64,000 bases of DNA, taken from NCBI GenBank assembly GCA_041686005.1, contig JAWLER010000006.1, forward strand, positions 17,635 to 81,634, read 5' to 3'. Below the pieces are notes generated by a model that worked only from the letters and a program-made list of their open reading frames with translations, was not told where the DNA came from and did no database searches. The position numbers and the translations under genes are program-made. This document shows, one piece after another, positions 21,837 through 49,491 of the stretch. Position 1 is the stretch's first letter. Each line of letters opens with the position of its first letter. Source of the stretch: Anaerolineales bacterium. Lineage in GTDB: Bacteria > Chloroflexota > Anaerolineae > Anaerolineales > UBA11858.

Positions 21837-22865
21837 ATGGGGGAGGGGTTCCTGCCAAAAGCAAAGGATAGGAAAGCCGTGAGACAGTGGTGGGCTTGTG
21901 TTTTCTCGAAACATATCCTTGAGCATCTTGGGATCGGACTTAATGTCCTTTTTTCTCTCTTCTTGGTATTCCATCTTGTCAGTTGTCATACCTTACCCCG
22001 CCTGAATAAGGAATACGGCAAGGAAATACCGACGGAAACCCGTTCACCAGTGTTGACTGCGACCCCCCAACCTACGGTTTGGTCCTCCCCAACCCCCACG
22101 GTTGAAGCGACGGAAGAGGCAACCCCCCAACCTACGAAGACCCCTGCTGCAAAGGTCTTTACAATCACCATCGTGTATGATAACTACTTGTACAAGAAAG
22201 GGTTGGAAACGGATTGGGGGTTTTCAGCCCTGGTTGAATATGGGGAGGAAAAGATCCTTTTTGACACAGGTGCCTCCGGGTCGATATTGCTTTCCAATAT
22301 GCGGAAGCTGGATATCGATCCCAAAAGGATTAACAAAGTCGTTTTATCCCACATTCATGGGGACCATATTGGGGGGTTACAGGCTTTATTGAACAGCGGG
22401 GCGCGTCCCACCGTGTATCTTCTCCCTTCCTTTTCCGCGTCGTATAAAGCTGAATTGCGAAAGACGGTCAAAGTAGTGGAGGTAAAAGCGGGGCAAAAAC
22501 TATCGGAGCGGGTCTACACCACGGGAGCATTGCCCGGCCCTCCACCGGAACAGGCGCTGGTTCTGGATACAACACATGGTTTGGTGGTCATTACCGGATG
22601 TGCCCATCCGGGGGTTGTGACCATGGTGGAGACGGCGAAGAGACATTTCCACGAAAGCCCCTATCTTGTCTTGGGAGGGTTCCACCTCTTCAACAAGAGC
22701 GAGGCGTATATCCAAGGCGTCATCAACGAATTCCACCGCCTGGGCGTGACATACGCTGCCCCCTGTCATTGTTCGGGGATGAAAACGCGGGCGATGTTTG
22801 CTAAGGATTACGGGAACAAATATGTGGAAGTTGGCGTGGGGAAAGTGATAGAGATAAAGCCGTGA
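21837..22865 (+). CDS. MBL-fold metallo-hydrolase with an N-terminal anchor and PT linker
   Basis: HxHxDH motif SHIHGDHIGG plus later His/Asp ligands (GCAHPG, GGFHL). The start is uncertain; a GTG at 21879 is an alternative. Confidence 0.7.
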   Translation: MGEGFLPKAKDRKAVRQWWACVFSKHILEHLGIGLNVLFSLFLVFHLVSCHTLPRLNKEYGKEIPTETRSPVLTATPQPTVWSSPTPTVEATEEATPQPTKTPAAKVFTITIVYDNYLYKKGLETDWGFSALVEYGEEKILFDTGASGSILLSNMRKLDIDPKRINKVVLSHIHGDHIGGLQALLNSGARPTVYLLPSFSASYKAELRKTVKVVEVKAGQKLSERVYTTGALPGPPPEQALVLDTTHGLVVITGCAHPGVVTMVETAKRHFHESPYLVLGGFHLFNKSEAYIQGVINEFHRLGVTYAAPCHCSGMKTRAMFAKDYGNKYVEVGVGKVIEIKP

Positions 22866-23010
22866 GGGGATTTTTCTCCTCTGCCGCCTTTCTTCTCCCA
22901 AGGTGGGTTGCATTTCAGAGGGTGGGATGTATGATCCACGGTCCCCATATCTTATGAATAATGTGTCAAAGTGAGTGCAAAGGGAACTTTTGGTGAAGGA
23001 GTGGAGGACA

Positions 23011-23421
23011 ATGATCAAAGACGATCCAGCGAAACGGGCTGGGAATCTTCTCCAGCGCGGTTACCATTGATCGGAAGGGATGATGATCGCCGTTGGCGAG
23101 CATGTTTTAGGTGAACTGGATGAGCGGATGATCCGGATGGCGACCGGTTTGGGGGGCGGCGTGGGTATGGATTATCAAGATCTGTGCGGGGCTTTCCTTT
23201 CGGGCGTTTTGATCATTGGGGCGTGTCATGGTCGAACGACCCCCGAGGTGGACGATGGCCCCTGTCAGGAAAAAGTCCGCGCCTTTCGACAGCGATTTGA
23301 GGCTGAAATGGGCTCATTGATTTGTGGTGAATTACGGGAGGAGAAATACGGCTCGGGTGGCGAAGAGCCCTGTTCGGTGCTTGTTGAGCGGGCCGCTGCT
23401 ATCTTACTTGAGATTGTATAA
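23011..23421 (+). CDS. C_GCAxxG_C_C family putative redox protein with an in-frame TGA (Sec candidate) at 23068-23070
   Basis: ATG 23011 has AAGGAG/GGAGG upstream and is in the same frame as track ORF 23080..23421. Family motifs are GYH-[TGA]-SEGMM, GLGGGVG, LCGAFLSG, LICGE and PCS. If the TGA is a true stop, the CDS is only 23080..23421. Confidence 0.55.
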
Positions 23422-23455: not shown

Positions 23456-24922
23456 ATGGGTGATCGGTTGGAACATACAGCTTCGCAATTAAACCGGTTG
23501 GGAGATTTGGTGGCGGATTTCGTGGCCCAATACCTGTCCGATCTGGAAGAGCTGGACGTCAGTCCAGCATCTATCACCCCGGAAGAGGTCCAAAAATCGC
23601 TCTCTGAGCCCCTGCCCCTGGAAGCGCAGGAGTTGGACGAGGTGTGGTCCGATTTTCAGGATAGCGTGGTGGATCAATCCGTCCGGGTTGGGCATCCGCA
23701 ATTCTTGGCTTGGATCAGGACCTCACCCTTGGGTGGAGCGGTGTTTGCAGAAGCATTGGCGGCCGCCCTCAATCAATCGGTAGCTGTGTGGGATGGGGCG
23801 CCAGCTGCCACAGAAGTGGAAAAGATGGTCATCCAGTGGTTGATTGAGATCAGCGGCTATGATCCTCAAGGCGGGGGCATCCTCACCTCAGGAGGGTCGA
23901 TGGCCAATTTCACCGGGCTGCTCGCAGCACTCTCATCCGTTTTCCCCCGGGTTCGAGAACAGGGGGTGAGGGACGGACCCCCTTTGGCAGTCTACCTCAC
24001 CTCTCAAACCCATTACAGCGTCCACAAGGCGGTGGAGATGATGGGAGTGGGGCGGAAGGCGATCCGCACAGTGCCCGTGGACGATGATCTGCGCATGGAT
24101 GCTGAAGCCCTTGCCGCTCGCATTCGCGGGGACCGCCAGAAAGGAACCCAGCCGTTAGCTGTGGTGGCGACTTTGGGCACGACCAGCACGGGATCCTGCG
24201 ATGACCTCCTTTCTCTGGGACGGGTCTGCCGGGAGGAGAAGGTGTGGCTGCATGTGGACGGTGCATATGGAGGGGTGGCAGGACTCATCCCCGGGAAGAG
24301 ACATCTCGTCCGGGGCCTCTCTGAGGCGGATTCCTTTGTCCTCGATCCCCATAAAAACCTCTTTATGCCTTTTGAAGCGGGTTGTCTGCTGGTTCGGGAT
24401 CTCGACCACCTGCGGTCTGCCTTTGCGGTGAGAACTGATTATCTTCCCAACACGGAGGGTGGCCTGATCAGGGAACAAAGCCTGCGGCACCATTTCCGGG
24501 ACTATGGTCCCCAACTTTCCAGGGGATTTCGCGCGCTCAAAATCTACCTGACGTTGAAACTGTATGGGTTAAACGACATCGCAAAAGAGATCGCCCGGGA
24601 GTATGATCTGGCAGAGAAATTTGCGGGGATGATCCACAGAGCGGAGGACTTCGAAACCCTGGCGGATGTGGCATTGGGGGTGGTTGCCTTCCGTTACCTG
24701 CCGCGCGACACAATGGATCGAGAACGTGTGAACGCATTTAATGCAGAAATGGTGGAGGAACTCCAGCGCAGGGGGAAAGTCTTTCTCTCCAAAATCGTTG
24801 TCCAAGGGCAGGTCGGTTTTCGGGCTTGTTTTGTTTCCCACCGCACACGCTCCTCACACCTCCAAGGGGTGTTGGATGAAGTCCGGGAGGTGGCTCGGGT
24901 TGTCCAGGGAATGGGGGAGTAG
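23456..24922 (+). CDS. pyridoxal-phosphate-dependent (group II) amino-acid decarboxylase
   Basis: 488 aa with SGGSMANF, HVDGAYGG and the PLP-lysine motif LDPHKNLFMP. Confidence 0.85.
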   Translation: MGDRLEHTASQLNRLGDLVADFVAQYLSDLEELDVSPASITPEEVQKSLSEPLPLEAQELDEVWSDFQDSVVDQSVRVGHPQFLAWIRTSPLGGAVFAEALAAALNQSVAVWDGAPAATEVEKMVIQWLIEISGYDPQGGGILTSGGSMANFTGLLAALSSVFPRVREQGVRDGPPLAVYLTSQTHYSVHKAVEMMGVGRKAIRTVPVDDDLRMDAEALAARIRGDRQKGTQPLAVVATLGTTSTGSCDDLLSLGRVCREEKVWLHVDGAYGGVAGLIPGKRHLVRGLSEADSFVLDPHKNLFMPFEAGCLLVRDLDHLRSAFAVRTDYLPNTEGGLIREQSLRHHFRDYGPQLSRGFRALKIYLTLKLYGLNDIAKEIAREYDLAEKFAGMIHRAEDFETLADVALGVVAFRYLPRDTMDRERVNAFNAEMVEELQRRGKVFLSKIVVQGQVGFRACFVSHRTRSSHLQGVLDEVREVARVVQGMGE

Positions 24923-27772: not shown

Positions 27773-28384
27773 ATGGCAAAGGTTGAACAAGTTTCAGGGA
27801 ACAGAAAAGGAAAACGGATCTGGATCCCGCTGGGGATCGTTTGCGGTGGGATCCTGGTAGTGTTGGGGGGGATTTTCCTCTGGGCGGGCTGGCAGGGGTA
27901 TCAGGAGGCCCCTAAATTGATTGAGGGGTCGGTGCCGCAGGGCTCATCGGGTGTGGGGTACCTCTTGACCCCGGATCAGGCGGGGATTCAGACAGAGCTC
28001 GGTCCCCCGGAGGCTTTTACATTGCTTTTTTATGAAGAGGAAACCGTAGATGGTTCGCTGCGGGATGTCCGTTTGGAGAGCTGGGATTACTACTCCCAGG
28101 GCGTTGGTTACACTTTCATCAACGGTGAGCTGACCGGAGAGGATGAGTTGGATATAAGCGAAATCGGGCAGCTGGCGCCGATGCCCTATGATCCGGAGCA
28201 GTTCGAGGCTTATATGAGCCTGAATGAAGTCCTGGCTGCTGCCAGCTTGGAAACGTATGTTGAGATTCCCCTCGAAAAAGCATTTCTGGAAGGTGGGGAT
28301 CTCTATTACGGGGAATCGTTGACCTTTGGGTTGGTGGACGGTGAGCTGCGCTACCTGGAAGCCCTGGCGCTGATCGAGGAGTGA
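27773..28384 (+). CDS. hypothetical membrane-anchored protein
   Basis: 203 aa with an N-terminal TM helix (IWIPLGIVCGGILVVLGGIFLWAGW) and an acidic ectodomain. No family recognised. Confidence 0.5.
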   Translation: MAKVEQVSGNRKGKRIWIPLGIVCGGILVVLGGIFLWAGWQGYQEAPKLIEGSVPQGSSGVGYLLTPDQAGIQTELGPPEAFTLLFYEEETVDGSLRDVRLESWDYYSQGVGYTFINGELTGEDELDISEIGQLAPMPYDPEQFEAYMSLNEVLAAASLETYVEIPLEKAFLEGGDLYYGESLTFGLVDGELRYLEALALIEE

Positions 28385-29102
28385 GAATAAGATGAAAAAC
28401 AAAATCAAATCATGGATCCTGCTGCTGGTTTTTTGTTTCAGCCTGGTGCCGTTCGGGGCCGGCCAGGCGGGGGGTCCGGGCCGGACCTTTGCGGAAGCCC
28501 GCTCCCTGCTCTACCTCGGGGGAGTTTTCCTGGAGGATGAAGCCAGCTTGGACACGGCAGTCCGATTCCCGGGGCTGATGGCCCCGGCTCCGGTTGTACG
28601 CCAGGCGGAAGGGGCAGAAGAAATCCTGAATCGGATGATCCACGCCACCAAGCAGGAGCGCAACGATCATGATGCAAACTGCCGCCAGCTGAAGATACAG
28701 TACCAGTCGGCGGGAGATCAAGCAGCGGTTCAGAAGCTGACATCCTATTGTGAAGGTGAACGCCAGCGTTTATCAAACAGGATCAGTTTTTTACGCAGAT
28801 TGCGGGGAGGGGACCGGCGCAAGTTGCTCACGCACTGGTGGCATTCGGTCAAGCGGGGTTCGGCCAACTTCTGGCGCCGGATTGGACCGCTGGGGAGAAA
28901 TATCCTCCGGAAGGTAGGCGATGAAGCTTTTAACACGGTTGCCAGCGGGGGCAGCTTGAGCGGTGAGGTGGTCCGCCGCTTGGCGAAGCAGGTGGTGAAG
29001 AGCCAGGCCCGGGAGGAGCTCAAGAAGGTGGTCTACCGCGGGGTGGAGCGCCTGCTGCGGGGCCAGGTGGAGATCGCCCGGGCGGCCGGGGTGCTGGAGG
29101 AT
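28380..29102 (+). repeat. direct repeat copy 1 (about 0.72 kb; 5' half of paralog A plus 12 nt of leader)
   Basis: Near-identical DNA to 29881-30603, at an offset of 1501 bp. It starts at AGTGAGAATAAGATG and ends after ..GGGGTGCTGGA(G/A)GATGA. Confidence 0.85.
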
Positions 29103-29810
29103 GACGGCGAGGGAGATGATCCGCAGTTCCTGGAAGGGGATGTGGACCAGTTCGATGATGGTGTGCTCAGCGAGGATGAAGTTCAGGAATCTGCCGCCAA
29201 CCAAGCCGAGGAGGAAGAGGACTGTCCGGGGGACAGCAGCTGGGTCGCACCGTACTGGGATGAGGTCATCCAACCGCAGCTGGTCGCGGAAGGTCGGATT
29301 TGCCAGCAAACGGCGATTGCCATTTATAAATCCTGTCTGCAGGATCAGGGCATCCAGGGAGTGTGCCCGGAGGACGCTTTGGCGCACTGTGACCCTTTAT
29401 ATCGAGCTATCCCGCGTACTGAAAGCAGCGGAACGGTGACTCAAAAATTGACCGTGATGCACAGTGAAGCACAAAACATCGCTGCCAGCCTGGTTTATAA
29501 CGGCAGCGGCGGCAGCGGGGTCCGCGGAAAGATCAGCTACATTCTACAGGACCGCCACCTGTGCACCATCAGGGTCACCAGCACACTCAGCGGCACCTTC
29601 GATCTGGACACCTGCACTTTGAGCGGCACAGCCCAGGTCACCGAAGTCTACGAAGGGACGGCCTGCGCCAGCGTGTGCAGCGGGGGTTCCTGTCCGGTGA
29701 CCCGCTCGGCTTCGGTCCCGTGGCAGGCCATCCTGGAGGACGGAGAGATTTCTGGAGGTGTGAATGGAAATGGGAGCAGTGTTAGTGGTTTTGGGTTTGG
29801 GACACCCTGA
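28392..29810 (+). CDS. secreted Cys-rich hypothetical protein, paralog A
   Basis: 472 aa with a signal peptide (MKNKIKSWILLLVFCFSLVPFGAG), a basic helical N-half and a Cys-rich C-half. It is a tandem paralog of 29893..31209. Confidence 0.65.
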   Translation: MKNKIKSWILLLVFCFSLVPFGAGQAGGPGRTFAEARSLLYLGGVFLEDEASLDTAVRFPGLMAPAPVVRQAEGAEEILNRMIHATKQERNDHDANCRQLKIQYQSAGDQAAVQKLTSYCEGERQRLSNRISFLRRLRGGDRRKLLTHWWHSVKRGSANFWRRIGPLGRNILRKVGDEAFNTVASGGSLSGEVVRRLAKQVVKSQAREELKKVVYRGVERLLRGQVEIARAAGVLEDDGEGDDPQFLEGDVDQFDDGVLSEDEVQESAANQAEEEEDCPGDSSWVAPYWDEVIQPQLVAEGRICQQTAIAIYKSCLQDQGIQGVCPEDALAHCDPLYRAIPRTESSGTVTQKLTVMHSEAQNIAASLVYNGSGGSGVRGKISYILQDRHLCTIRVTSTLSGTFDLDTCTLSGTAQVTEVYEGTACASVCSGGSCPVTRSASVPWQAILEDGEISGGVNGNGSSVSGFGFGTP

Positions 29811-29880
29811 CGCCTTGCTCTCCTCAGAAAAACGAGGGCGGGGCGCATACGGATCAGGATTATCGTGGTTTTAATGGAGC

Positions 29881-30603
29881 AGTGAGAATAAGATGAAAAA
29901 TAAAATCAAATCATGGACCCTGCTGCTGGTTTTTTGTTTCAGCCTGGTGCCTTTTGGTAGGGGGCAGACGGGGGGGCCGGACCGGACCTTTGCGGAAGCC
30001 CGCTCCCTGCTCTACCTTGGGGGAGTTTTCCTGGAGGATGAAGCCAGCTTGGACACGGCAGTCCGATTCCCGGGGCTGATGGCCCCGGCTCCGGTTGTAC
30101 GCCAGGCGGAAGGGGCGGAAGAAATCCTGAATCGGATGATCCACGCCACCAAGCAGGAGCGCAACGATCATGATGCAAACTGCCGCCAGCTGAAGATGCG
30201 CTACCAGTCGGCAGGAGATCAAGCAGCGGTTCAGAAGCTGACATCCTATTGTGAAGGTGAACGCCAGCGTTTATCAAACAGGATCAGTTTTTTACGCAGA
30301 TTGCGGGGAGGGGACCGGCGCAAGCTGCTCACGCGCTGGTGGCATTCGGTCAAGCGGGGCTCGGCCAACTTGTGGCAGCAGATAGGACCGCTGGGAAGAA
30401 ATATCCTCCGGAAGGTAGGGGATGAGGCTTTTAACACGGTTGCCAGCGGGGGTAGCTTGAGCGGTGGGATGGTCCGGCGGCTGGTGAAGCAGGCGGTCAA
30501 GAGCCAGGCCCGGGAGGAGCTCAAGAAGGTGGTCTGCCGCGGGGTGGAGCGCCTGCTGCAGGGCCAGGTGGAGATCGCAAGGGCCGCCGGGGTGCTGGAA
30601 GAT
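29881..30603 (+). repeat. direct repeat copy 2 (about 0.72 kb; 5' half of paralog B plus leader)
   Basis: See copy 1. Long runs are identical base for base, for example from TTTGCGGAAGCCCGCTCCCTGCTCTACCT through CCAGGCGGAAGGGGC. Confidence 0.85.
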
Positions 30604-31209
30604 GAGGAAGTGGACCAGGACGCTCAAGACGCAGACGAGAGTAGTTGCCAGACGGATTGGTGGTCCATTTCATTCTGGGAGGATGAAGTTCTGCCTGAAT
30701 TGTTGAACTCCGACAAACGCTGCGGGAACTTCCACCCGTACCAGACCTGCCTGGAAGAACGCGCCAGAGCGGGGGACTGCCTGGAGGATGCCTTTGCCAC
30801 TTGTGAAACTGCGTACCAGGACATCCTTTCTACCGGCTCTGGAAAGGTGGTCAAGATTGTCGATGATCAGCTCTACCACCGGGATGATGACAACTATTTT
30901 GATTTTAGTTTTTCGTTGAGCGGAGGACCCGTCACCGGAACGCTGTTGATTGACTATCAGACCGATTATGAGGGTGGGGACTACTGCCGGGTGACCCTTG
31001 AAAAGATTTACCAGGGAACCTTTGATCCGGCCACCTGTGTCCTGTCCGGGACCGTAGCTGTAACGCAGAGGCATGAAGAGAGCCGGAATGATATCTGCTG
31101 GGGAGAACCCTATGAGCGGGTGGAAAACTGGTCCATGACCATCAAGGATGGAGTTATCAGGGGTACGCCTGGAACCAAGGTTTATCCGCTTTCCGTGTAT
31201 CTCGAGTGA
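29893..31209 (+). CDS. secreted Cys-rich hypothetical protein, paralog B
   Basis: 438 aa. The first 237 residues differ from paralog A at 16 positions by hand alignment. The C-half is diverged but keeps the Cys pattern and the GTFD..TC.LSGT motif. Confidence 0.65.
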   Translation: MKNKIKSWTLLLVFCFSLVPFGRGQTGGPDRTFAEARSLLYLGGVFLEDEASLDTAVRFPGLMAPAPVVRQAEGAEEILNRMIHATKQERNDHDANCRQLKMRYQSAGDQAAVQKLTSYCEGERQRLSNRISFLRRLRGGDRRKLLTRWWHSVKRGSANLWQQIGPLGRNILRKVGDEAFNTVASGGSLSGGMVRRLVKQAVKSQAREELKKVVCRGVERLLQGQVEIARAAGVLEDEEVDQDAQDADESSCQTDWWSISFWEDEVLPELLNSDKRCGNFHPYQTCLEERARAGDCLEDAFATCETAYQDILSTGSGKVVKIVDDQLYHRDDDNYFDFSFSLSGGPVTGTLLIDYQTDYEGGDYCRVTLEKIYQGTFDPATCVLSGTVAVTQRHEESRNDICWGEPYERVENWSMTIKDGVIRGTPGTKVYPLSVYLE

Positions 31210-41774: not shown

Positions 41775-42755
41775 CTATCCCTGTTTTTTCTTTTTGGTCA
41801 GGAAGAACACGAACCCGGCGAAAATGAGGGCCACGACGATTGCGCCGCCCGCCAGGGCTAATAGGGCCAGGACCAAATTGCGTGTGATAAATGGAGACGG
41901 GCCTTCTGCGGTTATTTCTTGTATTGCCTCTTCTTCCTCCATTGGGGCGTTTAATAAAGGGGCGACATGTTGAGCGAGGACGTTTCCTGAGAGATCTGTC
42001 AGGATAACCTCCACATAAAGCGTTTCCGGTTCATCAGCAATTCCGCTCCAGTCCATGGAGAAGGATCCCTCCCCTGAAAAATCTGAGAGGTGCCGAATAG
42101 GTAAACCGTCGACAAGGGCATTCGAGCCGTAGCACTTTATAACTGCATCTATGAAGAGATCTTGCGGATGTCCATCATTTTGAATCCACCCTTCAACGGT
42201 TACCTCACCACCGTCATCGACCTCTGCTTGGAGATGTTGTATTTTGACCTCAGATTGGACATAATCAATCGCAAACTGGTATGTTTTGAAAAACAAGGCA
42301 TCCTTACTTTCCGGTTTGTAACGAAAGGGATAGAGGTTGATCTGGAGGGTTGCGCTCTCATCATAATTCTGCCATACCTGCCAAGTGAAGTCATCTTCGG
42401 GATACCAACCTGGGAGCATTTCGATGGGTAACTCGGGTTGATCTTCCAGAATGATAACAGGCAGATTCAAGCCTGGGTGTTTCTCGGGTTCGGACCTTTC
42501 GAGCAATCTAACATTTTGAACCCGGTAACCCGGCGGATAATCTTGGGAAACACTATAATATGGAATCTGGGGACGGCCCTGTTCAATCAGAAGCTGGTCA
42601 CCCCCTGGGATCTCAACGATGTCCGCATCTCCCTTTTGGGATATGACGATGTCCGGCACCGTAACATCAAGTCTGGCTGGTGGCTCATCTACCGCTGTGG
42701 CGCCCACCAACATGAGCGCGAATAGGATTATAGAATATACATGTGCGCGCTTCAT
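41775..42755 (-). CDS. type I membrane protein, possibly with a C25-propeptide-like ectodomain
   Basis: 326 aa with a signal peptide and a C-terminal TM helix plus KKKKQG tail. The segment VEIPGGDQLLIEQGRPQIPYYSV..PPGYRVQNVRLL resembles the G-x-P-x-[IL]-P...P-x-G module of C25 propeptides (recalled from memory). It starts 6 nt after the upstream gene. Confidence 0.5.
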   Translation of the reverse strand: MKRAHVYSIILFALMLVGATAVDEPPARLDVTVPDIVISQKGDADIVEIPGGDQLLIEQGRPQIPYYSVSQDYPPGYRVQNVRLLERSEPEKHPGLNLPVIILEDQPELPIEMLPGWYPEDDFTWQVWQNYDESATLQINLYPFRYKPESKDALFFKTYQFAIDYVQSEVKIQHLQAEVDDGGEVTVEGWIQNDGHPQDLFIDAVIKCYGSNALVDGLPIRHLSDFSGEGSFSMDWSGIADEPETLYVEVILTDLSGNVLAQHVAPLLNAPMEEEEAIQEITAEGPSPFITRNLVLALLALAGGAIVVALIFAGFVFFLTKKKKQG

Positions 42756-42761
42756 CTTCGT

Positions 42762-45700
42762 TCACCTCCCTCCAAATGTGGGGTCGCCATATAAGTTATA
42801 TTCATAACAGACAAAACGCCAAGTTTCTGTAGTTCGTACAAGTTCGCGTTTGACAAGTGTCAACGCTTCTCCAACCGTTGGCGAACCATCCAAGAATTTT
42901 TCGAAGAACTCCTTGCCAATGAGATGGCCGCTGGGTGACTTCTCTGTTGCACCGATGTAAACAGCCGCCTGGCGTGTCAGCATTGCGCGAGAAATCGCGT
43001 TATCCCCGCGATAATTGCCTGTTAAACATGAGGATGCAAAAATCACCGGTGAACTCCTTCTAAAATTGAGAGGCGTGATCCCAGGTTCATCCGGACCGCC
43101 AAGGTACATCTCTGTTGCTGAGCCGCATTCACCGGAAACGAAATTGTCAAGCGCCCAGCCCCAACTGCTTGGATTTCCGTGCCCACCCCAATAAATTAAA
43201 TCTACATCCACGGCGCCTGCTTTGATCAAGGAGCTTGACGCGTTTGCAGCCTCGCATTCACTGCTGTACGAGGTGTGGTAGACTCCAGGGATACCCCTGC
43301 GATCTTCCTCGACCTGCTCCGCCTCGGATTTGCTGATCAATGCTTCTAGATCAGAAAGAGCGGTGGGGGGGTGTGTCTTCGGGCACGGTGTGCCATCTAT
43401 TTCATGACCAGGTATGCCGGTGCATTCGTAATCACCGCGAATTACTAATGCTTCCCGCAGCAATTGCGTCAAGGTCGTATAGTATTCTGTATGAACGAAA
43501 TCCACTTCTATTCCATGGCTTTCCATGTTAGCAGCGATCATGTTGGCGCGGTCGATAAACCCTTCCCATGTATCTTCATGTCCGCTGACGAGAAGAGCGT
43601 GAGACCGGTCGAATGATTTTCTACCCAATTCAACCCCTACTGAGGCGTGTAATGCTTCTATTAGTTCTCTAGGGTTTCTTCCCAGGATCCTTCCCACCCT
43701 TAATTCCGGCCAACCGTCTTCGTTCCAAATATCTGTGTAGGGGTAATCTGTGTCGCGTACCGAGGTATAGACCGTGTCCCCCATTTTCACATGGAAGCCG
43801 GAAATATCGAAGGAGGGGAGGATGTTGGTTTCGCCCACCAACAGTACATAACCTCCATGGAAGAACGATTCATCCATCCTGTTTGCCCAATCCCCGCTGT
43901 AGCCCATGCCGGTATATCCGATGTTATCTTTTAAAGTCCTCCCACTATTCCATTCCTCGCCCGGTCGTCGGTACCCCAAAACGGCATGCTTATTGATGGC
44001 GAACGAAGCTAACGTGCTGAGTAATGCATTTGCGTCATCATCGTAGTAGTGAAAAAGACGTTCTGGATCAGTGATTGTGATGAACTTGACCGATTTGAAG
44101 GCTTCTCCGATCTCTTCCGGGAGTAAAGGCAGTGGATAAGAAGTATAGTCTCCAGGGATATAAGGGTCAGTGAATTCCAAACTGTTTTCGTGGTCCTCTG
44201 CATCCCTGAATGTGATCCGGGTTGTCCTGCCAATGGTGTAATCATTATCCATTGGATCTAGAAGAACTGGCACCAAGTCGTAAGAAATTGTCACCGAATC
44301 TCCTGCCGGGATCACCTCGTAAAACTGCGAAACCGTGACCGCGCTGTATTCATACGAGTAGGAGCTTTGGATCATACCTCTTGCAGACTGGTAATCCTTA
44401 CTGATGTCTTCAATGAGTACGTTATGAGCGTCCTGCATTTCGCTGGATCCTATGTTGCGGACCGTTAAATCGACATGGAAGTAGTGCCCTTCATTTGTGA
44501 CATTCCGTTCGATCCCGAAAGTCGGTTGTGGTACTTCACCTTTCGTTACTTGAATTCCGGCATGACCGGCATTATCGAATCTGTCCCAAGCTTGGACTTC
44601 CAATACAATCGTTTCGCCTTCGTCATATTCTCGCGTATCCCACAGGTAACGCAAGGTCATATCACCGTCTGATTCAGGTGGAATGTCGGGCGGAGTATCT
44701 TCGGAGAAAGGATTAAAGTACCTCAAATGCCGAACTTCTTCCTCGTTGATTTTGAGGATAGCTTTGTTGATCTGAAGATTGTTCTCGTGAGTGATGTGGG
44801 CTCGAATTTCCACTACACCTGATACCTCTTCTCTTGAAGAGGGATTCTGAATCGTCACTTGTACAGGGGAGAGTTCTACAGCGAGACGGTTTTCAATAGG
44901 GATCAGCCGTTTTAGTTCACGAACATTTCCTGAGTTGTCGATGACTTGAACGGTGATGTCGTGGTCGCCCTCATCCAGCAGTGTGGTGTCTAGATGCCAT
45001 TCGAAAGGGGATGAGAAGTCGGTCCAATGTGGAGTGTCATCTATCAAAAAGATCACCCTGTCCACGCCGATGTTGTCCACCGCGTCGACTTTGAGCTGGG
45101 CTTTTCCGGACAGCGTATCCGGTGCAAGCAGCTCCATGCTGGGGCTTTCATCATCCCCCAGGGGTGCGGTCAGAAAATGGAGTTGTCGGCTTGTGACGCT
45201 ATTGCCCGCAGGGTCTAGAGCCTGAACCACATATTGGTAGGGTGTTGCAGAGCGCAGGTTGGTGAGGGTAAGACAGTGCTCCTTCACCAGGGCTTCATCC
45301 TCGAGGGAAAAGCCGGGTGTCCCTGCTTGGAAATCGTAGCGTACCCTGCCTGTCGTGGGTTCGTCCGTCGTCCAGCAGATGCGGGTAGAATCCTGGGTCT
45401 GTTGATCTGCAGCAGGGCCTGAGATAAAAGTTGGAGGGGTCTCGTCAAGAGGGGTGGGTTCAGTGGTCGGAGGGGGTGGAGGCGTTACCGTTTCGGTAGG
45501 GCTGGGGATGGGAGTCTGGGTAGGGGTTTTGGTAGGCGGAGGTTGGGTCGGCGTTGGCTCCGGGGTGGCCGTGGGCTGGCGTTCGATGTGGGGGTCGACC
45601 CACACCGCCCAATCCTGTCCTGAACTGCCATGCGCATCGGCGTACAAGTAAAGGATGCCGTCATACCCGGCGTATTTGCTCAGGTCTACATTGATGGTTC

Positions 45701-46217
45701 TCAACTTTCCATCGTGCCGATCTACCACCTCAGCCAGTTTCGTTTTTATCTCACTCTTTCCGGGATACACATCGTAGAGTAATGAAAATCTCACCTCTCC
45801 AGCGGCTGCGCCTTTCAAGAATCCCACTTTGGCGACGAAACGATCCCCCTTCTGGATGTCGATCCCAAAATCAGCTAAGCGGAACGCGCCGTAGATGTAA
45901 CCATCGGTCATCCAGCGGGGATGGGTCTCGAAGCTTTTTTGGGCGGGTTGATCGTTCTCCAGCGTATAGTTGGGTCCCAGCGGGATCACGAAACCGCGGT
46001 TGTCGGCCTTATCGCCCGGGCAGGGAAGCTCCTCTTCCTGCTGCTGCGGACCGCCGCTGTACCAGGTGGCCTGGCAGCAGTGATCGTAGAAGCTGAAGAC
46101 ATTCGTATTGGCAGGAGCAGGTGCTTTTTGCATCCCCCATTCGTTGATGGGGGGCGAGACGATCAGCGACGTCAGGATGAAGAGCGCCAATGGGAAGGAT
46201 CTCATGAACCGGTACAT
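42762..46217 (-). CDS. large secreted multidomain protein with a C-terminal clan-CD (gingipain/C25-like) cysteine peptidase domain
   Basis: The start at ATG 46217 has AGGAGG 7 nt upstream. It has a signal peptide, a PT linker, FN3/Ig-like modules, and a His-Cys dyad in caspase-fold order (IYWGGHGNPSSWG ... VIFASSCLTGNY). Confidence 0.7.
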   Translation of the reverse strand: MYRFMRSFPLALFILTSLIVSPPINEWGMQKAPAPANTNVFSFYDHCCQATWYSGGPQQQEEELPCPGDKADNRGFVIPLGPNYTLENDQPAQKSFETHPRWMTDGYIYGAFRLADFGIDIQKGDRFVAKVGFLKGAAAGEVRFSLLYDVYPGKSEIKTKLAEVVDRHDGKLRTINVDLSKYAGYDGILYLYADAHGSSGQDWAVWVDPHIERQPTATPEPTPTQPPPTKTPTQTPIPSPTETVTPPPPPTTEPTPLDETPPTFISGPAADQQTQDSTRICWTTDEPTTGRVRYDFQAGTPGFSLEDEALVKEHCLTLTNLRSATPYQYVVQALDPAGNSVTSRQLHFLTAPLGDDESPSMELLAPDTLSGKAQLKVDAVDNIGVDRVIFLIDDTPHWTDFSSPFEWHLDTTLLDEGDHDITVQVIDNSGNVRELKRLIPIENRLAVELSPVQVTIQNPSSREEVSGVVEIRAHITHENNLQINKAILKINEEEVRHLRYFNPFSEDTPPDIPPESDGDMTLRYLWDTREYDEGETIVLEVQAWDRFDNAGHAGIQVTKGEVPQPTFGIERNVTNEGHYFHVDLTVRNIGSSEMQDAHNVLIEDISKDYQSARGMIQSSYSYEYSAVTVSQFYEVIPAGDSVTISYDLVPVLLDPMDNDYTIGRTTRITFRDAEDHENSLEFTDPYIPGDYTSYPLPLLPEEIGEAFKSVKFITITDPERLFHYYDDDANALLSTLASFAINKHAVLGYRRPGEEWNSGRTLKDNIGYTGMGYSGDWANRMDESFFHGGYVLLVGETNILPSFDISGFHVKMGDTVYTSVRDTDYPYTDIWNEDGWPELRVGRILGRNPRELIEALHASVGVELGRKSFDRSHALLVSGHEDTWEGFIDRANMIAANMESHGIEVDFVHTEYYTTLTQLLREALVIRGDYECTGIPGHEIDGTPCPKTHPPTALSDLEALISKSEAEQVEEDRRGIPGVYHTSYSSECEAANASSSLIKAGAVDVDLIYWGGHGNPSSWGWALDNFVSGECGSATEMYLGGPDEPGITPLNFRRSSPVIFASSCLTGNYRGDNAISRAMLTRQAAVYIGATEKSPSGHLIGKEFFEKFLDGSPTVGEALTLVKRELVRTTETWRFVCYEYNLYGDPTFGGR

Positions 46218-46653
46218 GGTAAGTCCTCCTTCCAAGCGATGCCATTGGCTACAGAAGGTCGGGTGGTGTCATTTGGTTTTGGAGCGTTATGGTAAAAGCG
46301 ATGTGCGATGTGGGGGTGGACTCTCTGCAGTCCGGAACGCGTTGAGATGGGTGTTTCTTATTTCCATGTTTGATTATAACGCTGGATTAAATGGGTGTCA
46401 ATTAAATTACGTTTTCATGCACGGGCTGGGATTTGGCTGGTAAGTCGTTAGAATCCCCATCAGAACGAAGTGAGCATCAAGGGTTTTCTTGTGGAATGCG
46501 CCTCACGATCCAGAGGATCGCCAAGCTGTTAATGAAGGAGCCCTCTCTTATGTGGAACCGTAAAAGGTGGTTTTTGATGGGGAGAAAGATCCTGGAAATC
46601 CGTCGTTTTTTCATTTGGTTTGATAGCATATATTTAACGGAGCTGCTTAACTA

Positions 46654-48205: not shown

Positions 48206-49491
48206 GTGATTGAAAGCCATCAGGCAGGCCTTGAAGACCGGTTGCATCGTTTAGCCAGCGAATTCATCCGATCGCGCTCGGAAAGTGATCAGGAACGTCT
48301 CGCGTTGGTGCAGGACCGAGAATCCCTCTCAGAGATCGTCGCAAAGCTGCTCCAGGGAGAGGAAGAGATCCTTCCCCGGGAGGTGGAGAAGCAGTTGGTG
48401 GAGGCGGTCGTCAACCGCATTGTCGGCTTTGGACCCATCGAACCCTATTTGCATGACCCGCAGGTGACGGAGATCATGGTCAACGCGCCGGACGAGATAT
48501 TTATCGAGAAAAACGGGCAGTTAGAACCTGTTCAGGCTTCCTTCCGGGATGAAGAACATATCCTTAACGTCATCGACCGCATTGTGGCTCCCTTGGGGCG
48601 GCGTGTGGATGAGTCTGTGCCCTTTGTGGACGCCAGGCTGCCGGATGGGTCGCGGGTCAACGCCATTATCCCCCCACTGGCTTTAAACTCACCGGCCTTG
48701 ACCATCCGCCGTTTTTCCGCTGCGCCGTTCACTTTGGCCCGTTTGGTCGATCTGGATACCCTGACGGTTCGCATGGCTCAATTCCTCCAGGCCTGTGTCT
48801 GGGCCCGGATTAATATCATCATCTCGGGCGGGACAGGATCCGGAAAGACATCCACGTTGAAGCCCTCGCTCGCTGTATCCCGGAAGGTGAGCGTCTTGTC
48901 ACCATCGAAGACACTGCTGAACTGCAGTTGATGGCGGATCATTTGGTCTCCCTGGAATCTCGACCTCCCAATATTGAAGGCAAAGGGGAGGTCACCATTC
49001 GCACCCTGGTCCGGAATGCCTTGCGCATGCGCCCCGACCGGATCATCGTGGGAGAGGTCCGGGGTCCGGAGGCGTTTGACATGCTGCAAGCCATGAATAC
49101 CGGGCATCCCGGTTCTCTGACTACGGTTCACGCCAACTCACCTGCCGATGCGATCCGGCGGATCGAATCCATGGTCTTGATGGCAGGATTGGAACTGCCA
49201 CAGCCCGCTATACGGGAGCAAATCGCCAGTGCGGTGGATTTGATCCTCCAACAGGAGCGGCTTCCCGGCGGAAAACGAAAAGTGGTCTCCGTCGCTGAGG
49301 TTCTCTCCTCCCAGGAGGAGGGATGGGAGAGCCTTCAGGTCAACACAGAAGAGATCTTCACTTTTGAACGGCAGGGCCTGGACGATCAAGGTCGCATGAC
49401 AGGGAGGTTTCTCAATACCGGATATCAACCTCAATGCCTGGAGAGGATCGAGCGCAGCGGTTACGTTCTGGGGTATCCATTGGAGATGTGA
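48206..49491 (+). pseudogene. cpaF: CpaF/TadA secretion ATPase with a frame break near 48860-48863
   Basis: Frame 1 carries Walker [13 protein letters not shown] and then runs into nonsense sequence. The -1 frame continues [23 protein letters not shown]...[14 protein letters not shown] (Walker B, Asp and His boxes). A single missing G in AAG(G)CCC would restore one ORF. Confidence 0.8.

Follow-up and report, generated by a model that had tools for sequence, protein, structure and literature searches.

The question raised by this locus is whether the TGA triplet at 23068-23070, which interrupts a short reading frame, ends translation or is decoded as selenocysteine (Sec). The frame lies in a stretch of 64,000 nucleotides of an Anaerolineales bacterium, which was analyzed at its full length and is called the window here. 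The window has a GC content of 55% and carries, among others, housekeeping genes for PheST, DnaE, UvrC, XseA, ClpB, phosphofructokinase and urocanase as well as a Tad pilus cluster; a second assembly of the same organism is available as GCA_051744205.1. Translation of the frame from ATG 23011-23013 meets a single in-frame TGA, joins the 113-aa ORF at 23080-23421 and ends with TAA 23419-23421. The start, the Shine-Dalgarno-like motifs ahead of it, the single TGA and the junction with the 113-aa ORF had been described in an initial annotation made from the sequence, and all of them were confirmed on rereading. The coordinates of all features are collected in Table 1. According to our analysis, this Anaerolineales bacterium very probably uses the TGA as a true Sec codon in the gene of a small redox protein, and the comparisons reported below demonstrate a conserved UGA, coding constraint on both sides of it, and a selected hairpin that is specific to the UGA forms.

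Table 1. Features of the locus and of the adjoining genes (positions refer to the window)
Feature	Position	Strand	Description
C_GCAxxG_C_C-family gene, predicted selenoprotein	23011..23421	+	136 codons plus TAA, Sec at codon 20; from read-through translation and profiles
Shine-Dalgarno-like motifs	22996..23007	+	AAGGAG 22996-23001 and GGAGG 23003-23007, before ATG 23011
N-terminal 19 codons, MIKDDPAKRAGNLLQRGYH	23011..23067	+	overlooked by gene callers; from codon-position entropy and alignment to Cys forms
UGA codon, predicted selenocysteine	23068..23070	+	stands at the first invariant Cys of the family
Spacer between UGA and supported stem	23071..23083	+	codons S-E-G-M plus first base of the next Met codon
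Predicted SECIS hairpin	23084..23102	+	23084-23091 pairs with 23095-23102, mismatch A23086/G23100, loop GUU 23092-23094
MBL-fold metallo-hydrolase gene	21837..22865	+	Pfam Lactamase_B; no equivalog-level NCBIfam match
PLP-dependent decarboxylase gene	23456..24922	+	Pfam Pyridoxal_deC; local insertion

For the profile searches, U was written as C. The read-through protein of 136 aa matched PF09719 with 79.9 bits (cut-off 27) over the complete profile (positions 1-118 of 118) and TIGR01909 with 61 bits (cut-off 47.4), again over the complete profile (1-120 of 120). The form starting at ATG 23080 reached 70.7 bits with PF09719 and covered profile positions 11-118 only. Since the full-length match is obtained only with read-through, it counts in favor of a selenoprotein. 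All four conserved Cys positions of the family are present, i.e. U20 (the TGA), C59 in LCGAFLSG, C105, and C121, and each of them falls on an invariant or nearly invariant Cys column in a family alignment of 25 sequences. In this alignment the TGA column is an invariant Cys between an invariant His and an invariant Glu. Thereby, two statements of the initial annotation were borne out, namely that the TGA replaces the first of four invariant cysteines and that the motif G-[YF]-x-C-[AS]-[EQ] describes this part of the family.

To follow the TGA through related genomes, a first set of 84 loci was assembled, consisting of the window, three contigs from a protein look-up and 80 metagenome contigs. 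In 83 of the 84 loci the column is TGA, and in one (L031) it is TGT. Syntenic orthologues at 88% and 60% identity have the same in-frame TGA and keep the upstream peptide LLQRGYH*SE. Matches in tblastn run through the stop and cover query residues 1-136 or 3-136, and the 73 full-length Sec orthologues that were compared are 49-87% identical to the window protein. Extra stops were seen in two orthologues (L026 and L036). A genome scan with one genome per species added nine further TGA forms and 44 more distant homologues with TGC or TGT at the column, none of the latter having a TGA at another position. The nine TGA forms all stem from MAGs of Anaerolineales, Anaerolineae or Chloroflexota, except for one contig labeled Nitrosomonadaceae with Anaerolineales synteny, while the 44 Cys forms are from other Anaerolineae, Dehalococcoidia, Desulfobacterota and others. 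The TGT-bearing L031 falls within the Sec clade (75% identical to L050), and this nested position indicates a Sec-to-Cys reversion. The alignment of orthologues that the initial annotation had proposed as a check thus gave TGA in the close relatives, Cys in L031 and in the 44 homologues, and a stem that covaries, as described further below.

This distribution also bears on the possibility that the TGA reflects a nonsense mutation in a pseudogene undergoing decay, or that 23068-23070 was sequenced or assembled incorrectly. A change from TGY to TGA needs one base only, and the window comes from a MAG with at least one probable frameshift elsewhere, which splits a T2SSE gene (48206-49491). However, the triplet recurs in 83 of 84 loci of the first set, which draws on independent assemblies as well as on metagenome and SRA-derived contigs, and in the nine genome loci, and TGA-bearing orthologues down to 49% protein identity have intact frames on both sides. 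A recent nonsense mutation, the alternative that the initial annotation had listed, is ruled out by this conservation, and the whole explanation can be regarded as effectively refuted.

The 19 codons upstream of the TGA were analyzed by codon position. Over the 15 codons before the TGA, the entropy at third positions is 1.7-2.0 bits in 66 unique orthologues, and first and second positions of the conserved codons have 0-0.4 bits (A-G at -10/-9 and G-[YF]-H at -3 to -1). The encoded peptide can be aligned to AG..F.NG[FY]HC[SA]EA, the first helix in Cys-form proteins. Judged from this substitution pattern, the 19 codons evolve as coding sequence under purifying selection at the protein level. According to these data the upstream part is translated and conserved, which rules out an assembly error, a leader ORF unrelated to the gene, and a nonsense mutation of recent date. 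Also, most of the full-length loci (n = 77) have an ATG with a Shine-Dalgarno-like, purine-rich motif about 19-22 codons 5′ of the TGA.

The public annotation of the gene is different. The GenBank call covers 23080-23421 only and gives a 113-aa 'C-GCAxxG-C-C family protein' (P0001). A protein search yielded 26 relatives, nearly all with 112-132 aa and a query coverage of about 82%, a value which shows that a Met downstream of the TGA column was taken as their start. In many orthologues a GAGG is located 5 nt before this internal ATG, and this is probably the reason for the wrong start calls. Among the protein-search matches listed (the best 120 of 8000), no U-containing record of the clade was present, which indicates that the clade is consistently mis-annotated.

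These observations can be turned around and taken as support for the short form: the true product would then be the 113-aa protein from ATG 23080, the TGA would close an unrelated ORF or leader, and the hairpin described below would be incidental. Gene callers and GenBank chose a start of this type for nearly all relatives, the GAGG ahead of the internal ATG would suit it, and under limiting selenium termination at the UGA together with some internal initiation could occur. Against this, neither the invariant H-C-x-E nor profile positions 1-10 are contained in the short form, and the 19 codons ahead of the TGA, which have their homologous counterpart in the first helix of Cys-form proteins, show amino-acid constraint. 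Moreover, the intervening stop is TGA without exception (83/83); neither TAA nor TAG occurs, and the triplet invariably falls in frame on the Cys column. A shorter protein from 23080 had been kept as a second alternative in the initial annotation; it leaves the conserved upstream ORF unexplained, and we consider it improbable as the true product. The annotation of the gene should therefore be corrected to 23011-23421, with codon 20 read as Sec. The error spans the clade: from nearly all public records retrieved (about 112-132 aa), both the N-terminal helix and the residue predicted to act in catalysis or as a ligand are missing, so that structure predictions and inferences on function made from such records are wrong.

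Decoding of the UGA as Sec in bacteria depends on a SECIS hairpin, and a candidate follows the TGA directly. In the window, A23083-U23103 forms a ninth pair position, with which the hairpin AUGAUCGCC-GUU-GGCGAGCAU extends over 23083-23103. This extended form comprises 8 pairs plus an A/G mismatch; it begins 12 nt downstream of the TGA, with 21 nt between UGA and loop, exactly as had been read in the initial annotation. The distance from the TGA to the Val codon in the loop is always 8 codons (84/84 loci). The published bSECIS model has a loop of 3-9 nt, a stem of 4-16 bp, a UGA-to-loop distance of 16-37 nt, and a minimum free energy of at most -7.5 kcal/mol; in addition, one of the first two bases of the loop has to be a G, usually as part of GG or GU (PMC13188914). 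The window element, with its GUU loop, its stem of 5 bp, mismatch and 3 bp and its distance of 21 nt, fits this model, and the earlier statement that its geometry lies within the bacterial range holds for loop, stem, G, spacing and energy. The energy of -7.6 to -8.8 kcal/mol is only narrowly within the threshold. For comparison, L031 and L089, with a perfect 8-bp stem, have -11.8 to -14 kcal/mol and L003 has -7.1 kcal/mol. Taken alone, the window hairpin does not stand out from chance (z about -1.8 to -1.9; equaled by 7-13 of 200 shuffles; z -0.44 in a 45-nt context), and none of the Rfam families matches it. The significance of the hairpin comes entirely from the comparison of orthologues.

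For this comparison, 69 unique sequences were numbered with the T of the TGA as position 1, so that positions 17-24 pair with 28-35 and the loop comprises 25-27. G25 and U26 of the loop are invariant. Paired cells amount to 90.3%, vs 33-47% in controls with the 3′ arm displaced by 1-3 columns, and the covariation score was reached by none of 500 shuffles. Changes compensated on both sides occur at three pairs, for example GCC/GGC to UCC/GGA (with Ala to Ser), CUC/GAG to CUU/AAG (with Glu to Lys), and CUC/GAG to UUC/GAA. Altogether 23 stem variants were found, almost all of which keep 6-8 of the 8 pairs. An internal mismatch at 19-33 is present in 13 sequences, including the window, and the outer pair 16-36 is unsupported, being unpaired in 40 of the 69.

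The stem also codes for a conserved peptide, (I/L)AVGEH, to which the conservation of the hairpin is partly owed; controls at synonymous sites and with Cys forms were therefore needed. At the synonymous sites, the third base of the in-stem Ala codon (GCC) is invariant with 0 bits and that of Gly (GGC) has 0.55 bits; the flanking four-fold sites at positions 6, 15, 39, 45 and 48 are near saturation with 1.9-2.0 bits, and the third base of the loop Val is freer with 1.08 bits. In the second control, the 44 Cys forms have a mean of 3.0 of 8 pairs and -5.6 kcal/mol, the 9 genomic Sec forms 7.1 of 8 and -10.2 kcal/mol, and the 68 metagenomic Sec forms 7.7 of 8 and -11.7 kcal/mol. Also, the peptide AVGEH is conserved only in the Sec forms. 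The one Cys form within the Sec clade, L031, retains a perfect hairpin and thereby resembles published cases in which remnant SECIS elements were described in recent Sec-to-Cys converts (PMC1794560). On these comparative grounds, selection on the hairpin as RNA is demonstrated at the sequence level and is specific to the UGA forms. The clade is thus a clean natural data set, with 69 unique sequences, compensatory changes and one Sec-to-Cys revertant, and it shows a SECIS element constraining the protein it overlaps, AVGEH being kept only where the hairpin is needed.

A hairpin within a gene could also be an intrinsic terminator or attenuator with no SECIS function, and a consensus scan did score TCGCCGTTGGCGA followed by GCATGTTTTA as terminator-like. 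However, the U-rich tail is limited to the subclade of the window and most orthologues have CACGUCCUGGG after the stem, the same scan yields 9 such sites in 3.6 kb vs 4.3 expected, and a terminator at this place would abolish the 100 conserved codons downstream. We rejected the terminator reading, since the tail is confined to the subclade and terminator-like sites are common in the scan; its probability is negligible.

If the hairpin is needed for decoding, the genome should contain the machinery that uses it. In the window, selA, selB, selD and tRNA-Sec were not found by ARAGORN, Rfam, and Pfam searches (Pfam on 41 of the 49 ORFs, precomputed Pfam for the rest), and none of the Sec machinery was found in about 17 kb of further sequence of the 90-kb contig. 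Likewise, ARAGORN detected no tRNA-Sec in any of the fetched loci, and tblastn with E. coli queries detected no SelD or SelA in the approximately 1.3 Mb of these loci. The order as such is known to have the trait: SelB and formate dehydrogenases of the Sec type were reported from single-cell genomes of Anaerolineales, and a SelB is also encoded by Anaerolinea thermophila (PMC4959059), from which it follows that the Sec trait exists in Anaerolineales.

The missing machinery in the window and the further 17 kb of the contig would be in line with a UGA read-through that does not involve Sec, either by a near-cognate tRNA for Trp, Cys or Arg stimulated by the hairpin or by a lineage-wide reassignment of the codon. 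Downstream structures can stimulate read-through in some systems, which would suit this explanation too. Nevertheless, TGA closes 22 of the 49 window ORFs, so that it is an ordinary stop in this genome and has not been reassigned. The homologues without TGA all have Cys at the column, which is a specific Sec signature, and the hairpin geometry and the G-U loop match the model of SelB binding. Finally, Sec-containing members of the family have been published, and for the order there are reports of SelB. Read-through without Sec is accordingly very improbable, even more so than the short product from ATG 23080.

Taken together, we regard it as highly likely that UGA 23068-23070 encodes Sec. The selenoprotein reading of the initial annotation was strengthened by the pairing of Sec and Cys forms, by the purifying selection upstream, by the agreement with the SECIS model along with covariation, and by membership in a recognized family. 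Translation would start at ATG 23011, and the ribosome would be recoded at the UGA. The hairpin at 23084-23102, which lies in the 35 nt of coding sequence that follow the UGA and has G-U first in its 3-nt loop, would act as the SECIS element and, following the established bacterial mechanism, would recruit SelB with GTP and Sec-tRNA(Sec), so that Sec is inserted instead of termination. Sec would thereby take the position of the first of the four conserved Cys. The product is most likely a small redox or metal-centre protein of 136 residues in which Sec would be the reactive or ligand residue.

That members of this family can contain Sec has been described before. The NCBIfam name of TIGR01909 is 'C-GCAxxG-C-C family (seleno)protein', and a 2022 review counts the pfam09719 family among the prokaryotic selenoproteins (PMC9312934). 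A 2026 review distinguishes two subfamilies differing in Sec position, form 1 with MGD8741185.1 and form 2 with WP_012158890.1 as representatives (PMC13188914). Form 1 could be traced via a matching name to the 'Putative redox protein' in the 2007 paper on the Olavius symbionts (PMC1976440), and WP_012158890.1 is attributed to the 2008 GOS metagenome analysis in the 2022 review (PMC9312934). The selenoprotein status of the family has therefore been published since 2007/2008, and the gene analyzed here is an annotation fix and no discovery. The form 1 representative belongs to a deltaproteobacterial symbiont, whereas the gene here belongs to a large clade of Anaerolineales (Chloroflexota); the form 2 representative presumably comes from Alkaliphilus. 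With the published C-GCAxxG-C-C selenoproteins the protein shares the domain, Sec in place of a conserved Cys, a SECIS-like hairpin after the UGA and a presumed redox function. The Sec positions of forms 1 and 2 are not stated in the texts of the 2026 review and the Olavius paper (PMC13188914, PMC1976440), and the papers on BSepDB and deep-Sep mention neither the family nor Anaerolineae. The arrangement H-U-[SA]-E may correspond to form 1 or to form 2, and might even represent a third subfamily by Sec position.

With bacterial SECIS elements in general, as covered by the bSECISearch model and its archetype in E. coli fdhF, the element shares the location of the hairpin in the coding region right after the UGA and a small loop with G-U. 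Within the bacterial range its loop is minimal (3 nt), and its stem is a perfect 8 bp in most orthologues and mismatched in the window. The SECIS of E. coli fdhF has a bulged U, which is missing from the hairpin here. Two related NCBIfam models were compared as well, and both align with residues 5-135. The HUGP/GUXX-star fusion selenoprotein NF045501 scores 32.6 against a cut-off of 325 and the DVU_1555 family C-GCAxxG-C-C protein NF045669 scores 51.6 against a cut-off of 103, so that the protein is a member of neither. A fused second domain and a C-terminal GUXX are both missing here. Going by the name, 'HUGP' suggests a Sec right after His, comparable to H-U-S-E in the present protein. The finding adds a well-supported selenoprotein to Anaerolineales, where selenium use is little described, and leaves the understanding of selenoprotein biology unchanged.

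The neighboring genes were inspected for a partner of the protein. Of 40 unique Sec loci with sufficient flank, 29 have an adjoining MBL-fold gene in the same orientation, which precedes the Sec gene in 19 and follows it in 10; of 37 Cys loci, only 1 has such a neighbor. Its occurrence on either side shows that the adjacency survived changes in gene order. The MBL-fold hydrolase is the likeliest partner, probably as a functional or operon mate; in the papers on C-GCAxxG-C-C selenoproteins cited here, such a neighbor is not mentioned. The PLP-dependent decarboxylase was rejected as a partner, since it is located downstream in three loci only (the window, L003 and L089). Its best NCBIfam match, diaminobutyrate decarboxylase, is far under the cut-off, and a weak match to SepSecS was dismissed as reflecting merely the shared PLP fold.

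With respect to protein structure, a single-sequence search gave no related solved structure. The AlphaFold model of P0023, the closest full-length Cys homologue, is all-helical (pLDDT 82.9) and places the four conserved Cys at N-termini of helices, including C100, which is equivalent to Sec. With this model, Foldseek returned 1H21 as best PDB match (prob 0.82, TM 0.42, E 0.77), and 1H21 was independently the top PDB match of the family profiles (E 0.0077 and 0.0047), a remote similarity of borderline significance. 1H21 is the split-Soret cytochrome c of D. desulfuricans ATCC 27774, deposited as 'a novel iron centre'. Its N-terminal domain shares the core GG.(x)n.CGAL.G....GR, and the spacing between the last two Cys is 16 residues in both proteins; C44 in FGCGFGAFYS, the first Cys of 1H21, lies 4 residues away from the position of H-C-x-E. 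The 136-aa sequence, in contrast to 1H21, has neither CxxCH haem motifs nor a cytochrome domain, and the likeness claimed is at the level of the domain and concerns the N-terminal part of 1H21 only. Abreu et al. in 2003 are said to have identified the iron centre of 1H21 as a Cys-ligated [2Fe-2S] cluster. Based on these structural comparisons, it is conceivable, at rather low probability, that Sec is a metal or cluster ligand and not one half of a selenenylsulfide. More speculatively, and unlikely in its full extent, the C_GCAxxG_C_C domain may be homologous to the iron-centre domain of 1H21 and its four helix-capping Cys may bind an Fe-S or iron centre; with Sec as one of the ligands, the present protein would then have a Se-ligated cluster and be a small electron carrier reserved for the MBL-fold enzyme next to it. 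If confirmed, the link to 1H21 would give the first clue to the function of a domain that is widespread and functionally uncharacterized.

A search for a second selenoprotein gene in the window, in which ORF pairs joined by TGA were scanned, gave only adjacent genes in the same frame. A known selenoprotein family is represented in the window by MGMT, here a Cys form with the motif IPCHRV.

The genomic context of the selenoprotein gene was compared among the loci carrying orthologues or homologues (L001-L099). In 29 of 40 unique Sec loci, i.e., those with TGA at the column of the first invariant Cys, the selenoprotein gene has an MBL-fold hydrolase gene as its same-strand neighbor; among 37 Cys-form loci, this neighbor is present in only one. 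The hydrolase gene precedes the selenoprotein gene in one subclade and follows it in another; thus, gene order was altered while adjacency was retained. The features detected in the window, including this neighbor, are listed in the table.

Features in the surroundings of the selenoprotein gene and elsewhere in the window
Feature	Window coordinates	Strand	Remarks
MBL-fold hydrolase gene	21837-22865	same as selenoprotein gene	
PLP-dependent decarboxylase gene	23456-24922		between selenoprotein and homoserine dehydrogenase genes
Three successive ORFs	27773-31209	same strand	203, 472 and 438 aa
Peptidase_C25/Big_7 ORF and second ORF	41775-46235	-	1157 aa with TGA end; 326 aa
CpaF/TadA-type T2SSE ATPase gene	48206-49491		Tad pilus cluster; two ORFs in different frames

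Insertion of the PLP-dependent decarboxylase gene is limited to three loci, namely the window, L003 and L089. The top NCBIfam match of its product is L-2,4-diaminobutyrate decarboxylase, far under the cut-off, and a weak match to SepSecS was also obtained. The SepSecS match reflects the common PLP fold rather than Sec metabolism.

The spacer between UGA and hairpin, located at 23071-23082 of the window and aligned with the corresponding positions of its orthologues, often contains GAGG about 5 nt 5′ of an in-frame ATG. This motif, which falls in codons Glu-Ala/Gly, looks like a ribosome binding site and thereby probably accounts for the start at the internal ATG set by gene callers. Some initiation at this ATG might also take place in the cell, e.g., under selenium limitation. 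A consensus terminator scan flagged the SECIS stem together with GCAUGUUUUA (23087-23109) as terminator-like; the U-rich tail after the stem is present only in the subclade of the window.

Within the Sec clade, the sole Cys orthologue (TGT) was found at locus L031 (3058-3123, metagenome contig Ga0299912_10029460), which shows 75% identity to locus L050. Its hairpin is intact (perfect 8-bp stem, −11.8 kcal/mol) and looks like a remnant SECIS left by a recent Sec-to-Cys reversion. Two metagenomic Sec-form orthologues carry an extra premature stop 3′ of the hairpin (L026, ~1490; L036, ~1890) and are possibly pseudogenes or affected by sequencing errors. A Sec-form gene is also present on contig CAXMRF010000051.1, labeled 'uncultured Nitrosomonadaceae bacterium'; because it sits in full Anaerolineales synteny (MGMT, C39 peptidase, MBL, homoserine dehydrogenase, RarA), this contig was probably mis-binned.

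By fold and by profile, the best PDB match of the C_GCAxxG_C_C domain was the iron-centre domain of the split-Soret cytochrome c of D. desulfuricans ATCC 27774 (1H21). Comparison of residues 42-107 and 155-191 of 1H21 with the family profile revealed a common CGAL.G....GR core and, in both, a distance of 16 residues between the last two Cys. This likeness possibly offers a functional handle on C_GCAxxG_C_C, a domain of unknown function.

Elsewhere in the window, the two T2SSE ATPase ORFs correspond to positions 4-164 (48206-48931) and 191-275 (48928-49491) of the Pfam T2SSE profile, and the L003 orthologue is one undivided ORF of 425 aa. The split is probably a frameshift, meaning that the gene has decayed into a pseudogene or that the assembly is in error here. 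The three successive ORFs had no Pfam match at E ≤ 1e-5. The 326-aa ORF, likewise lacking a Pfam match, starts two codons after the Peptidase_C25/Big_7 TGA in the same frame. The two ORFs are probably neighboring separate genes; less likely, this TGA is read through or both belong to one larger protein.
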